From: a virus
Virus record (IMG/VR): IMGVR_UViG_3300033141_003168
Location: 1 to 64,000 of that record
Strand: one strand, 5' to 3'
DNA length: 64,000 nucleotides
Part shown: one piece after another, positions 5,403 to 63,956 of the stretch
How the letters are laid out: the number at the start of each line of letters is the position of its first letter
Numbering within the stretch: position 1 is the stretch's first letter
Position numbers and translations under genes: made by a program
The notes under the pieces: model-generated
The model's database searches: none
What the model was told of the DNA's origin: nothing
The model's input: only the letters and a program-made list of their open reading frames with translations

Positions 5403-5433
5403 TTTAATTACTACGGAAACCGGATTAATTAAA
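5403..5433 (+). repeat. 31-bp imperfect palindrome, copy 1
   Basis: tttaattactacggAAAccggattaattaaa. Confidence 0.95.
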
Positions 5434-5446
5434 TGAGGCCAATGAA

Positions 5447-6559
5447 ATGACAAGCATCGACCGTTGGAAAAATATCGGGAAACAAATTGATTTTAAGGTG
5501 TCAATATGGATCGGTGGCGGACTCGGAGATTGTGCGCATCATTATAAAAATCTCGCATATTTTAGAGTTCTTCAGCACTTGAAACAAATATTTCCAAATT
5601 TATATGTTATCTTGCAAATCGTTGGGAATGGTGCAAACTTTACTCGACAACTATTTGAACTCGATCCTTGTATAGATGAAATAGTAACTGCAAGTGAAAA
5701 CGGTTTTATGTTTGATTCTGTATATTCATTTATGCAAGATGATTGTAATTTGAATAAGTATGAGTACGGTCGGTTTAGGCCGGAGACAAATCCAGATGTT
5801 ACATTCCGTCGCGCAGTAAATCGAGTGTATGCGCTCATTAGATTTCCGAGACAACACACAATCACAATGGATGATTTTTTTCAGCAACTACAACTTGACA
5901 TAAACGATTTCAAACATGACCTTGCAGAGATACACCTATCTTCAGAAGAGAAGGAGTTTGGAGATACTTTTAAGGCCGTTAATGGAGACAAACCTTTAGT
6001 CGGAATTCATTGGTTTTCAAAAGATGAAGGGCGCACATGCCTCTCTGCATCGAAGTGGTGTAAAATTATTGACAAGCTTTTGGAAATAAATTATCGAATA
6101 GTAGTTTTCGGCGCACCGCACGAAAAGGATTTGAATAATCTGAATTCTATTTATCATAAACGAACAGCCGAGTTGTTTGGTTTGTGGGATAAAATAAAAG
6201 ATAAAAAGGAAGTTTATGGATTATTTGACGAACCAATCCGCAAAAAAATTGCTGTATTAAAACAATGTGATTATATGCTGTGCATAGACGGGGGAATGAT
6301 GCACCTGGCTTGGTTGCATGCTGTACCTACTCTTGCCGTTGTAGAGAAACCAAAACAAGGTAGGGGTTACCTCGATAATGTTAATGGTTATCATTGGGCT
6401 GCGGCAGCAGGAGAGCCTTTTGCGGGAAGATTGATTAGTGATTGTGGAATGTCGGACGACTTATCGGCGGATAAGATAATAAGTGAAATGAAGAAACTGG
6501 ACGGCACGAAAGATAAAAGAAAAAGTCTTATTTGGAGGGATCAAAATGCTGTGGAATAA
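5447..6559 (+). CDS. Glycosyltransferase family 9-like
   Basis: 'GGGLGD', 'LDPCID', 'LVGIH', 'CDYMLCIDGGMMHLAWLHAVPTLAV'. Confidence 0.75.
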   Translation: MTSIDRWKNIGKQIDFKVSIWIGGGLGDCAHHYKNLAYFRVLQHLKQIFPNLYVILQIVGNGANFTRQLFELDPCIDEIVTASENGFMFDSVYSFMQDDCNLNKYEYGRFRPETNPDVTFRRAVNRVYALIRFPRQHTITMDDFFQQLQLDINDFKHDLAEIHLSSEEKEFGDTFKAVNGDKPLVGIHWFSKDEGRTCLSASKWCKIIDKLLEINYRIVVFGAPHEKDLNNLNSIYHKRTAELFGLWDKIKDKKEVYGLFDEPIRKKIAVLKQCDYMLCIDGGMMHLAWLHAVPTLAVVEKPKQGRGYLDNVNGYHWAAAAGEPFAGRLISDCGMSDDLSADKIISEMKKLDGTKDKRKSLIWRDQNAVE

Positions 6560-7325
6560 AGTATACGAAGAGTCGGATTTAAAAGACGGCTTGTCTGCTG
6601 AGTCAAACGAGATTAATGATCTTATTGACAGCCTTCATTCAAATGGCGTGCCGCTAACGGTTCACCGAATACGATACTGGGAGTGGCCTCTGAATCTTCA
6701 CGTGGCGGAAGTAAAGGAAGGAGATCGAGTTTTAGATATTGGAGTTGGTGGAAGTCCGCTTCTCGTTGCGTTTAAGAACAGAGGGTGCGAGTGTTATGGT
6801 TGCGATAAAGATAACTTAAATCCGATTTATGAGAAACACTTGTCGAATCTTGGAATCAATTTTTTATCTGCAAACATTTTTAACCTACCTTTCGAAGACA
6901 ATTATTTCGACTTCGTTACCAGCACATGCGTGCTCGAACACATTGACAATCTCAAAATCGAAGACCGTCAACCATTCTTGAACTCCATCGTGAAAGGCCT
7001 GACAGAAACAATTCGTGTTTTGAAACCGGGAACGTTATCTTCACACACTATCGACTTTAAAATTTTTGGGTTTAATGGGTGGAGCCAATTCAATAAATAT
7101 GACATATCAAAAATTGTAAACAATTTAAAGGGACTTGCTAAACAGGCTGGCGGAGTAAATTATGAAGTTGCGGATGGACGGGAATATTATCTGAGAGAAA
7201 ACCCTATCCATTCACCAAATTCAGAAAAGGCAAAAATAACTCGCGCATGCCTTGAGAACAAAATGAGATTGGCGGATGGTAGCATGAGAACTTGCGCGTC
7301 ACTCGTGCTTAGAAAAGGAGTTTAA
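6546..7325 (+). CDS. Class I SAM-dependent methyltransferase
   Basis: 'VLDIGVGGS', 'LPFEDNYFDFVTSTCVLEHI', 'RVLKPG'. Confidence 0.85.
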   Translation: MLWNKVYEESDLKDGLSAESNEINDLIDSLHSNGVPLTVHRIRYWEWPLNLHVAEVKEGDRVLDIGVGGSPLLVAFKNRGCECYGCDKDNLNPIYEKHLSNLGINFLSANIFNLPFEDNYFDFVTSTCVLEHIDNLKIEDRQPFLNSIVKGLTETIRVLKPGTLSSHTIDFKIFGFNGWSQFNKYDISKIVNNLKGLAKQAGGVNYEVADGREYYLRENPIHSPNSEKAKITRACLENKMRLADGSMRTCASLVLRKGV

Positions 7326-7328
7326 GAA

Positions 7329-7550
7329 ATGGAAACGATAGCCGAAAAAATCGACAAGTTAATCACGATTGATATTCGTTTGTGGCATTTGCAAGATGAT
7401 GTTGTTGACGAAAAAGACGATGCTAAGTGCGCTGAAGTTGCACGAAAAATTGTGAAAGTAAATTTGCAACGTGTGGCACTCAAGGATGAAATAAATGATT
7501 TTTTCAAAGACGGTTCGGCTGAAATCAAGCAGTACGGAACTGAAGAATAA
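7329..7550 (+). CDS. Small helical protein (DUF4254-like, a family often found beside GT9 genes)
   Basis: 'IDKLITIDIRLWHLQD...NLQRVALKDEIN'; SD AAGGAG upstream. Confidence 0.5.
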   Translation: METIAEKIDKLITIDIRLWHLQDDVVDEKDDAKCAEVARKIVKVNLQRVALKDEINDFFKDGSAEIKQYGTEE

Positions 7551-7565
7551 CATCGGAGAAATAAT

Positions 7566-8051
7566 ATGGAACCAGACATCATTGTGCAAGCACCGGAATA
7601 TGCGAAAATAATTTATTATATCCTTGCTATAACTCTAGTAACTTTTTCAAAAGTTGCAGTAGATATTTTCAAAGCGGCCTTTTCTTATGTTCAAAAAAAG
7701 AAAAATGGTGGCGTAAATGAAGAACAAGATTCGTTAAAAATATTAAAGGAAGAAATTAGAATTTGCAGAAATACATTAGAAAAACTTGAAGAGTGGCACA
7801 ACGTAAAAGACCCCGATGGAACATTCACCTGGCATAATAAAGTTTCGGTTGAAGGCAAAATAGAAAGAACGTCGGAGCAAGTCGCATCACTCAAAGAAAC
7901 TGTTGCAGATGTTAAAGGTGAAGTAAGAACTATTGCAACTTCTAACGCAACAGTTGCAAGTAGAATAGAAGCATTATCGAGCGAAGTGTCAGGAAGTTTA
8001 CGGGAAACTTCGCAAATGTTAAATGCAATACGAAGATTACTGGAGGGATAA
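7566..8051 (+). CDS. Membrane-anchored coiled-coil protein (possibly lysis-related)
   Basis: One N-terminal hydrophobic helix followed by heptad-rich helix. Confidence 0.45.
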   Translation: MEPDIIVQAPEYAKIIYYILAITLVTFSKVAVDIFKAAFSYVQKKKNGGVNEEQDSLKILKEEIRICRNTLEKLEEWHNVKDPDGTFTWHNKVSVEGKIERTSEQVASLKETVADVKGEVRTIATSNATVASRIEALSSEVSGSLRETSQMLNAIRRLLEG

Positions 8052-8056
8052 ATAAC

Positions 8057-62499: not shown

Positions 62500-62627
62500 T
62501 GTTCAAATTTGAAACCGAATTAATAAGCTCGTTATTTAAAAAATCTAAGGAGGTAAAATGAGTAGAAAGAACAAAAGGTCGTTGCGTAAGAAACGAAAAC
62601 GCAAGACTAAGAAAAAGGAGGAAGTGA

Positions 62628-62975
62628 ATGGATATAGAAGACAGAAATGCGGAACTAAGTGAAAAAGAAATATTGGGATGCAGGCTTGTGGCGTTTGTAC
62701 TGAAACAAAAAGACCAAGTAATAAACAATCGTCTGGTGTCTTTGTTCAGAACCGAGTTTGAAGTTCGCGCGGAACTGATAGTAGAAAGCAAACGGTGGAT
62801 TTACAGTCCAGAACCGTTTGAGGATGCAAAAAGAAATTATATTTTTCATCGCAGAGGTTCCGGTATCGTGAAGTTTAGTTTGGCTTGCGAGGGTGAAAGT
62901 CCAGTGGAAGTTGAACTAAACCTTGAAACAAAAGAAGTCAGTACGTTTCATACACAGGGAATGATATTTCAATAG
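62628..62975 (+). CDS. Hypothetical protein
   Basis: SD AGGAGG. Confidence 0.5.
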   Translation: MDIEDRNAELSEKEILGCRLVAFVLKQKDQVINNRLVSLFRTEFEVRAELIVESKRWIYSPEPFEDAKRNYIFHRRGSGIVKFSLACEGESPVEVELNLETKEVSTFHTQGMIFQ

Positions 62976-62985
62976 GAGATGCATT

Positions 62986-63306
62986 ATGTTTTTTGAAGAA
63001 GGTTCACACAAGCTTACTAATGATGAAGTCGAAGTGTTTCATGTTATATCTAAGTTGTTAAAATTTGCGGAAGAAAAAATGTTTGAACCCGTAGATCAAG
63101 AATTACTATCAGATTTTAATATCGAATTTGGCGTTCAAGGTGATTTGGTATTTGATACAGGAGGTCATTTCAAACCCAAATCCAGACATTATATCCGATA
63201 TTTTCCGACAAACGGGAAAACACATTTTTGCGTTCTTTCTAATAGTACATTCATCATTGTAATTGTGTCCGGAGGCAATGAACCGATTGAACTGGAAATA
63301 TTATGA
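62986..63306 (+). CDS. Hypothetical protein
   Basis: SD AGGAG. Confidence 0.5.
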   Translation: MFFEEGSHKLTNDEVEVFHVISKLLKFAEEKMFEPVDQELLSDFNIEFGVQGDLVFDTGGHFKPKSRHYIRYFPTNGKTHFCVLSNSTFIIVIVSGGNEPIELEIL

Positions 63307-63361
63307 ACGCTAAGAAAAAATCACTTTACAAAGGATGCGGTTTCAACAGGGAGGAAGTATA

Positions 63362-63742
63362 ATGCAAAAGACACCCGGCAGACATGCAGCATGGCTATTT
63401 ACAGAGCAAAGAATGAAAGCGGTTAAAAAGTATATCGTGAACCTCATGGGGCTTGAGGATTTTCTTCGTGACTATCTTGACAAGTCACCCGACGATAGCT
63501 CGACTGACGTAATGCACTGGTCAAACATTTTCATTTATAACTACGGCGATTTTATAAAACAAATCGTGTACCGAAAAACCTACGGCGGCAAGAGGTGGGA
63601 GAAACGACTGGCGACCGAAGCATTCGGTGAGGCGATGTTTGCCTTAATGATAGTTGCAATCAAGAGCGGTATTGACATTGCAGAAGCGGCAGACATAGTT
63701 GCCGACAAGTATAACAATCAGGAATGGAAGAAGAAGAATTAG
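63362..63742 (+). CDS. MazG-like nucleotide pyrophosphohydrolase (tentative)
   Basis: 'EAFGEAMFALMIVAIKSGIDIAEA...KY' resembles the MazG C-terminal helices. Confidence 0.45.
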   Translation: MQKTPGRHAAWLFTEQRMKAVKKYIVNLMGLEDFLRDYLDKSPDDSSTDVMHWSNIFIYNYGDFIKQIVYRKTYGGKRWEKRLATEAFGEAMFALMIVAIKSGIDIAEAADIVADKYNNQEWKKKN

Positions 63743-63925
63743 GAAAGGAGGAGTTACCAGCTATGAAATCACTAAAAGATGAAATCTCTTCTGGCGAAGA
63801 TCATGCACAAAAAGCAGAAGACAAACACCTCGCATCGGTACCGGAATCATGTCGCGACTGCAAAAGTGTATTTGTATGTGGTTGGAAACATCGGCATAAA
63901 GAGTGTGACGGCAAGGAATAGATTT

Positions 63926-63956
63926 TAAAACTAATCCGGTAACCGGGGTAATTTTC
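63926..63956. repeat. 31-bp imperfect palindrome, copy 12 (variant built from two 'right' arms)
   Basis: taaaactaatccggTAAccggggtaattttc. Confidence 0.8.

Follow-up and report, generated by a model that had tools for sequence, protein, structure and literature searches.

What reads the 31-bp imperfect palindrome that recurs at the gene junctions of a phage genome, and is it read as DNA or as RNA? The question is raised by the window, that is, the whole 64,000-nucleotide stretch analysed here (positions 1 to 64,000 of the IMG/VR virus record IMGVR_UViG_3300033141_003168), which forms the first part of a phage record that is complete at 110,331 bp and carries a direct terminal repeat of 114 bp. 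The twelve copies located by the initial annotation are all found in place, eleven with the exact core TACTACGGAAACCG (starts at 5409, 8307, 16263, 22228, 28973(-), 30241, 34233, 39535, 48877, 51196 and 58461(-), where (-) denotes the minus strand) and one degenerate, at 63932. Shuffled versions of the window contained this core 0.20 times on average, and none of 100 shuffles reached 11 copies. A full-genome motif scan, which had been suggested at the same time, was run with a profile built from the copies and returned exactly 23 sites in the 110,331 bp. These scored 25–40 bits, while all other matches stayed at or below 14.5 bits and were mostly the same sites read backwards. The palindrome is also the only repeated 12-mer of the genome. 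The sites exist and are selected as DNA, and it is probable that they are recognized by a protein on the double helix; which protein this may be is answered below with more reserve. The sites are the following.

Site 1, 5403..5433, plus strand: between a 358-amino-acid open reading frame (ORF; stop 5402) and a 370-amino-acid ORF (start 5447)
Site 2, 8301..8331, plus strand: follows a TTGACA-17-TATAGT promoter-like site (8254-8282) at a distance of 19 nt
Site 3, 16257..16287, plus strand: 18 nt before a 563-amino-acid ORF
Site 4, 22222..22252, plus strand: some 150 nt past the terminator at the end of the tail operon
Site 5, 28962..28992, minus strand: inverted; extends over the upstream stop codon; the clamp gene starts 26 nt further on (29019)
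Site 6, 30235..30265, plus strand: after the clamp gene; 24 nt before a 64-amino-acid ribbon-helix-helix-like ORF
Site 7, 34227..34257, plus strand: overlaps the stop codon of the vWA gene
Site 8, 39529..39559, plus strand: overlaps the stop codon of the SNF2 helicase gene
Site 9, 48871..48901, plus strand: overlaps the stop codon of a 189-amino-acid ORF
Site 10, 51190..51220, plus strand: overlaps the recA stop codon
Site 11, 58450..58480, minus strand: inverted; two plus-strand genes on its sides
Site 12, 63926..63956, plus strand: degenerate, core TAATCCGGTAACCG, 25.4 bits
Eleven sites past the window, positions of the cores: 66375(-), 69489(-), 77165(-), 77411(+), 79136(+), 80204(-), 83675(+), 92101(+), 95362(+), 101791(+), 106228(+)

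Positions -7 to +25 relative to the core are conserved, a span of about 32 bp that carries roughly 36 bits and is laid out as AAYTA-CTA-CGG / AAA / CCG-nnn-TARTT, with AT-rich ends beyond. Almost nothing changes in the left half, the spacer and the CCG (the spacer reads AAA at 20 sites, GAA at two and TAA at one), whereas the three positions that mirror CTA differ from site to site: GAT at nine, GGG and GAG at four each, TTG at three, TAG at two and CAG at one. The variable positions of the right arm are 14–16 and 19, and the arms are hence not both invariant. The outer arms come in few versions, TTTAATTA, ATAAACTA and AAAAACTA, each of which is found on either side and independently of the partner arm. 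Variable positions also go together with the flanks in sub-families, as exemplified by GGATTAATTAAA in six copies. Half-sites never stand alone, except for one TACTACGG at 64005(-) (64005–64012 region), past the end of the window and 73 nt from the degenerate site 12, which may be the remnant of a second copy.

The form in which the element acts was assessed from the relation between its arms. Across the 14 putative pairs, 76.7% of the cells were paired, as compared to 78.2% in shuffles, and 456 of 500 shuffles reached the same value or a higher one; no covariation signal was detected between the arms. Hairpin predictions gave values between -1.9 and -14.5 kcal/mol; the two perfect copies and several others account for those of -10 to -14.5 kcal/mol, and six copies remain at -3.3 kcal/mol or weaker. 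No Rfam family matched the element. Approximately six sites are inverted relative to local transcription, and these keep the asymmetric core 14-mer intact on the other strand. Because the arms show no covariation, the hairpins are weak and the inverted copies retain the core, it is well supported that the unit under selection is a duplex-DNA site composed of two related half-sites, one strong and one relaxed, rather than a folded transcript. The preference for a double-stranded site over an RNA hairpin expressed in the initial annotation thus stands, now on arms that vary independently, copies of which many fold very weakly, and a core preserved on inversion.

Its view of the element as neither a simple promoter nor a simple terminator is likewise borne out. 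Strong sigma70-like promoters adjoin only two of the 23 sites (8254–8282 and 79111–79083), the strong intrinsic terminators lie away from the sites (at approximately 22.08, 23.46, 77.1 and 83.2 kb), and both orientations occur. The one promoter that had been remarked on, just in front of copy 2, is present and ends 19 nt before it. As a promoter the element itself was rejected, given that nothing is conserved past +25, that no consistent -10 element appears in the right arm, that starts follow 13–26 nt downstream and that both orientations are found. A terminator or RNA hairpin was ruled out by the pairing count, the fold energies and the location of terminators elsewhere, and the ideas of a nick site, a Chi-like site or a primase site were discarded on an orientation pattern that follows no strand or replication logic. 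Separately, an ORF-poor stretch at 21872–23620 was seen to contain the terminator at about 22.08 kb, a TTTACA-17-TATAAT site at 22360–22388 and the strong terminator at about 23.46 kb; no known Rfam family was found in it.

The copies of the window all sit between genes or reach into the stop codon of the upstream gene, and each leaves 13–26 nt to the start codon that follows. This part of the original description holds, but it does not carry over to the rest of the genome, where three sites lie inside ORFs. Most copies occupy the gap from the stop codon to the next ribosome-binding site, often with the stop within the left arm, and such a placement at gene junctions is the only free room in this tightly packed genome. 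Structural, replication, lysis and early gene blocks hold sites alike, which adds the latter two to the structural and replication regions named before. In 17 of the 23 sites the sense strand carries the AAA. With a coefficient of variation of 0.56, as against 0.94–0.96 expected, and a largest gap of 9.4 kb, as against 17.9–18.4 kb, the sites are spaced evenly, both under a uniform null and under a gene-junction null (P = 0.0005–0.002).

The three sites within ORFs are read in one common frame, as DLITPETGVVF, NLITTETGLVY and QETTTETGVVF. Two of them belong to a 2106-amino-acid head polyprotein, at residues 758 and 1845 and thereby outside its methyltransferase matches (358–630 and 1178–1644), and the third starts 11 codons into a 409-amino-acid ORF. 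The 22 kb of head genes at 83.7–106.2 kb contain these three in-frame sites only, with no intergenic copy. In the polyprotein P0217 of a relative (58% identical, encoded on a 109,727-bp contig), the second in-ORF position reads SLITSESDVIN, which could, judging by the peptide, be compatible with a CGG-AAT-CCG centre, and nothing comparable occurs at the first. Because P0217 differs at both positions, site positions are seen to turn over between relatives; the copies are not clean insertions. The polyprotein itself (genome 89822–96142) was observed to join Dam-type and C5 methyltransferase domains to an ATP-dependent ligase domain (PF02086, PF00145, PF01068).

In its 22–23-base version the motif is absent from IMG/VR, and elsewhere six JGI metagenome contigs and four of 185,579 species genomes each carry one copy, attributable to chance; a first scan with the 14-mer returned single chance matches, save for one tandem cluster of four in one contig. 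As IMG/VR holds none and the other collections hold single copies of the 22–23-base motif only, it is neither a widespread repeat nor a common host element. Within the phage, the following gene products were considered as candidate binders.

36449..37489, plus strand: orphan ParB-family protein, 346 amino acids; the best candidate
30290..30484, plus strand: ribbon-helix-helix-like protein, 64 amino acids; an alternative candidate
35675..36421, plus strand: helix-turn-helix (HTH) and double-zinc-ribbon protein, just upstream of the ParB gene; an alternative candidate

The N-terminal domain of the first of these was recognized as PF02195 with 33.1 bits (cut-off 26.3) and is the only ParB_N domain in the genome. 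A phmmer search matched the protein to ParB and Spo0J structures, and its AlphaFold model (predicted local distance difference test score, pLDDT, 85.7) displays a long helical C-terminus after the N-terminal and HTH domains. Over 230–277 columns, at E-values of 1e-6 to 1e-8, the model aligned with two-domain chains of ParB, Noc and KorB. In Foldseek, 7bnk and 6sdk were matched at E 3e-8 and the KorB structures 8qa9 and 8qa8 were matched as well, and the model could also be aligned with the isolated DNA-binding domains 6s6h and 6y93. At the level of the predicted structure, these matches show the fold of ParB, Noc and KorB with its N-terminal and HTH domains. Five full-length homologues, 33–51% identical, were retrieved from metagenomes and share a conserved putative recognition helix, SxxQYxxxKRA. 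P0067, 51% identical to this ParB, falls into one 90% cluster with P0215, a ParB encoded on the same 109,727-bp contig as P0217. The nearest homologues do not occur in IMG/VR, and loci with distant ones showed no clear repeat families.

A search of the complete genome for a ParA partner gave no AAA_31 match, whereas the control was positive in 14 of 14 genomes. Because the ParA ATPase was not found, the arrangement is not filed as a ParABS partition system, and the centromere analogy of the initial annotation loses its motor. With regard to gene neighbourhood, the stretch 34273–39533 is bounded by two palindrome sites and encodes a 181-amino-acid protein, a DUF6744 protein, the HTH and double-zinc-ribbon protein, the orphan ParB and the SNF2 helicase; this block may constitute a functional module.

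The explanation favoured here is that each of the 23 elements would serve a sequence-specific, phage-encoded protein as a docking site on duplex DNA. The N-terminal and HTH domains of ParB/Noc/KorB type, the absence of a ParA match and the fact that no other DNA-binding family is common to this phage and the Cluster O phages make the ParB-like gene a reasonable candidate; that this single, partner-less ParB-family protein (36449–37489) is the actual binder we consider possible, and put forward tentatively. A ParB dimer would bind across the CGG-AAA-CCG centre and then spread or clamp from regularly spaced entry points, whereby no part of the chromosome would be more than a few kb from a site. 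This might serve to silence or time expression across the genome, as in the case of KorB, or to mark or organize the phage DNA. The genome represents a clean test case in this respect, since it combines one ParB, one information-rich site family, even spacing, copies in coding DNA and a strong next to a weak half-site.

Several observations weigh against assigning the sites to the ParB-like protein. Its Box II reads GKTRLKIA, as opposed to GERRxRA in ParB and GxERxRA in the nearest homologues; Box III (DNxLRRQL) is retained, and given the deviant Box II it is uncertain, from the sequence, whether CTP (cytidine triphosphate) would drive clamping. The site measures 25–32 bp with a 3-bp spacer, as compared to the 13–16 bp sites known for ParB and KorB, and its strong left/right asymmetry and oriented AAA would be unusual for a symmetric ParB dimer. 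No clustering of sites is seen near the parB gene. The phage also encodes other DNA binders: the ribbon-helix-helix protein, whose gene directly follows site 6, and the HTH and zinc-ribbon protein. Finally, in Corndog, a Cluster O mycobacteriophage with a comparable repeat (see below), the sites cluster in the right arm, in contrast to the even spacing here, and its ParB-like gp90 matches the present ParB weakly, over the N-terminal domain only (78% probability).

Of the other explanations, the one that survives best, albeit as an unlikely one, is that a classical small regulator uses the sites as operators and tunes or blocks transcription at many points of the long operons, in the manner of stoperators. 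The regulator would be either the ribbon-helix-helix protein, as a dimer of dimers, or the HTH and zinc-ribbon protein. Such operators are documented (PMC9283540), and the asymmetric 14-bp core, the location in short intergenic spaces and the preference of AAA for the sense strand (17/23) are in line with them. Moreover, a length of 25–32 bp fits a ribbon-helix-helix tetramer better than a ParB dimer, and the 64-amino-acid ORF, a possible binder, begins 24 nt after site 6. However, the RHH_1 match of this ORF (18.1 bits) falls under the Pfam cut-off of 20.5, its sequence pattern being typical of the family; no more than two of the 23 sites are near sigma70-like promoters, and about a quarter are inverted relative to transcription.

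The gene content also disfavours stoperator-like operators. The phage encodes its own replisome (sliding clamp, DnaB-like helicase, primase, large DNA polymerase and RecA), and no tyrosine integrase was found in the whole genome, nor any integrase, immunity repressor or other lysogeny gene among the approximately 70 proteins scanned, many small ORFs being devoid of annotation. Because it has a replisome of its own and lysogeny genes were not found, the phage looks virulent. Its structural genes include tail sheath, portal, head protease and tape measure, a contractile-tail gene set. Close relatives were encountered neither in the phage collection nor in IMG/VR, the best matches being 28% identical for SNF2, 33% for the polymerase and 30% for the portal.

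A 350-amino-acid protein with a weak HTH, encoded beside the double site at 77.2–77.4 kb, was considered as a binder too and is the poorer candidate, its gene being flanked by direct repeats of its own. Three copies of AAGGGTGTCRTAA (genome 76769–76894) come just after this gene (75737–76789), and a copy with one mismatch precedes it at 75665. The repeats are part of a 0.9-kb non-coding region with a strong terminator and two palindrome sites, and resemble a separate set of local operators or iterons.

It is improbable that the palindrome is a small selfish or recombinogenic unit, which would copy itself into gene junctions and linkers and offer a homology patch for module exchange while having no dedicated binder. 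Such a unit would account for the sub-families in which variable positions and flanks are linked (GGATTAATTAAA, six copies), a linkage that we read as confined to one arm, with the two arms assorting independently. The in-frame copies in the polyprotein are placed at what can be read as module joints, the 58%-identical relative lacks one of these in-ORF sites, and deletions between Cluster O repeats have been reported (PMC4351075). In addition, the palindrome site at 79136 is directly abutted by a free-standing gene for an HNH_3 endonuclease (genome 78097–79160, minus strand), which has a near-consensus promoter of its own. Conversely, an invariant left half combined with three varying right-half positions points to selection and not to the neutral decay of young copies, and the spacing is more even than chance would have it. 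No target-site duplications accompany the sites, neither a RAYT nor a Y1 transposase was found, and the 22–23-base motif shows no multi-copy occurrence in IMG/VR, the JGI metagenomes or the 185,579 species genomes. The related proposal of the initial annotation, recombination sites, obtained no direct support here.

An IS607-like element is present in the genome and is unrelated to the sites. It comprises a TnpA (MerR HTH and resolvase domain) and a TnpB gene at genome 73114–74891, preceded by a TTTACA-17-TATAAT promoter-like site, and is without a palindrome copy. This is the sole TnpA/TnpB pair (73.1–74.9 kb); no insertion sequence was found in the window, contrary to the insertion-sequence cargo mentioned in the initial annotation.

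A host protein as the binder, for instance a regulator or nucleoid protein that the phage recruits or titrates, we regard as very unlikely. The A-tract and the AT-rich arms do resemble the targets of nucleoid-associated proteins, but some 36 bits is far above what a nucleoid protein needs, and the 22-base pattern is found in four of 185,579 species genomes only, as a single copy in each; a degenerate host box is still conceivable. Least credible of all is a hairpin in messenger RNA serving processing, stabilization, termination or translational control, for although the element occupies the space from a stop codon to the ribosome-binding site that follows, U-G pairs occur and the two perfect and several other copies reach -10 to -14.5 kcal/mol, the arms pair no more than they do after shuffling and show no covariation, six copies are at -3.3 kcal/mol or weaker, inverted copies would yield the complementary RNA and yet keep the DNA core, the in-ORF copies have no start codon behind them, real terminators are found elsewhere and Rfam gave no match.

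Among described systems, the Cluster A stoperators number 20 to thirty-odd asymmetric sites of about 13–14 bp, situated in short intergenic spaces and biased in orientation (PMC9283540). The present sites are likewise distributed genome-wide, in short intergenic spaces and with a bias relative to the direction of transcription. They differ in that stoperators serve the immunity repressor of temperate phages, whereas lysogeny functions were not found here, and in that the present site has dyad-symmetric outer arms and tolerates inversion.

A closer counterpart in sequence is the 17-bp repeat of the Cluster O mycobacteriophages, TGTTCGG-NNN-CCGAACA, which is present in 34 copies in Corndog with a spacer of mostly AAA/TTT, lies between and inside ORFs with few copies near promoters, is absent from other genomes and has no function assigned (PMC4351075). 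A scan of the Corndog record confirmed the 34 copies, most of them with the centre CGGAAACCG. Both repeats consist of inverted arms around a 3-bp, mostly AAA/TTT spacer with an identical 9-bp centre, CGGAAACCG, and both occur in tens of copies, intergenic as well as in ORFs, with a slight preference of AAA for the sense strand and few copies near promoters. Both phages also encode a ParB-like protein, gp90 in the case of Corndog, and among Corndog's predicted DNA-binding proteins ParB_N was the only DNA-binding family common to the two. Conversely, host type, tail type and genome size differ, and the two phages are unrelated, with a methyltransferase segment as the sole tblastn match between them. 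The arms are longer here (about 14 bp) and AT-rich, with one half relaxed at three positions, whereas the Corndog arms are invariant. The array described here is therefore a variant of the Cluster O-type dyad repeat and not the same repeat. As a thematic parallel to the methyltransferase/ligase polyprotein, Corndog encodes Ku and several methyltransferases. A more far-reaching reading, which we consider doubtful, is that the partner-less ParB coats or marks the whole chromosome from sites at most 9.4 kb apart, even within a giant structural gene, and that the CGG-AAA-CCG shared with Cluster O would reflect an old and widespread phage system of ParB plus site, for silencing, self-marking or DNA protection.

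For a ParB-family protein acting from dispersed sites, the best mechanistic model, by analogy, would be KorB with the OB operators of the IncP-1 plasmid RK2 (PMC11790492, PMC13584720, PMC13768133). KorB is a ParB-family protein with N-terminal and HTH domains, its one palindromic site is scattered over the whole replicon, and it acts at a distance. The present case differs in concerning a phage and not a plasmid, in that a ParA/IncC partner was not found and no KorA- or TrbA-like partner was identified, in its much longer, asymmetric site and in its deviant Box II. Dispersed dyad repeats in phages have been described since the Cluster O paper of 2015, their binder and function never having been assigned, and orphan ParB proteins are common on mobile elements with roles likewise unassigned (PMC12704722). 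If the ParB-like protein binds the sites, these two questions would become one, and control at a distance in the style of KorB would extend from plasmids to lytic phages.

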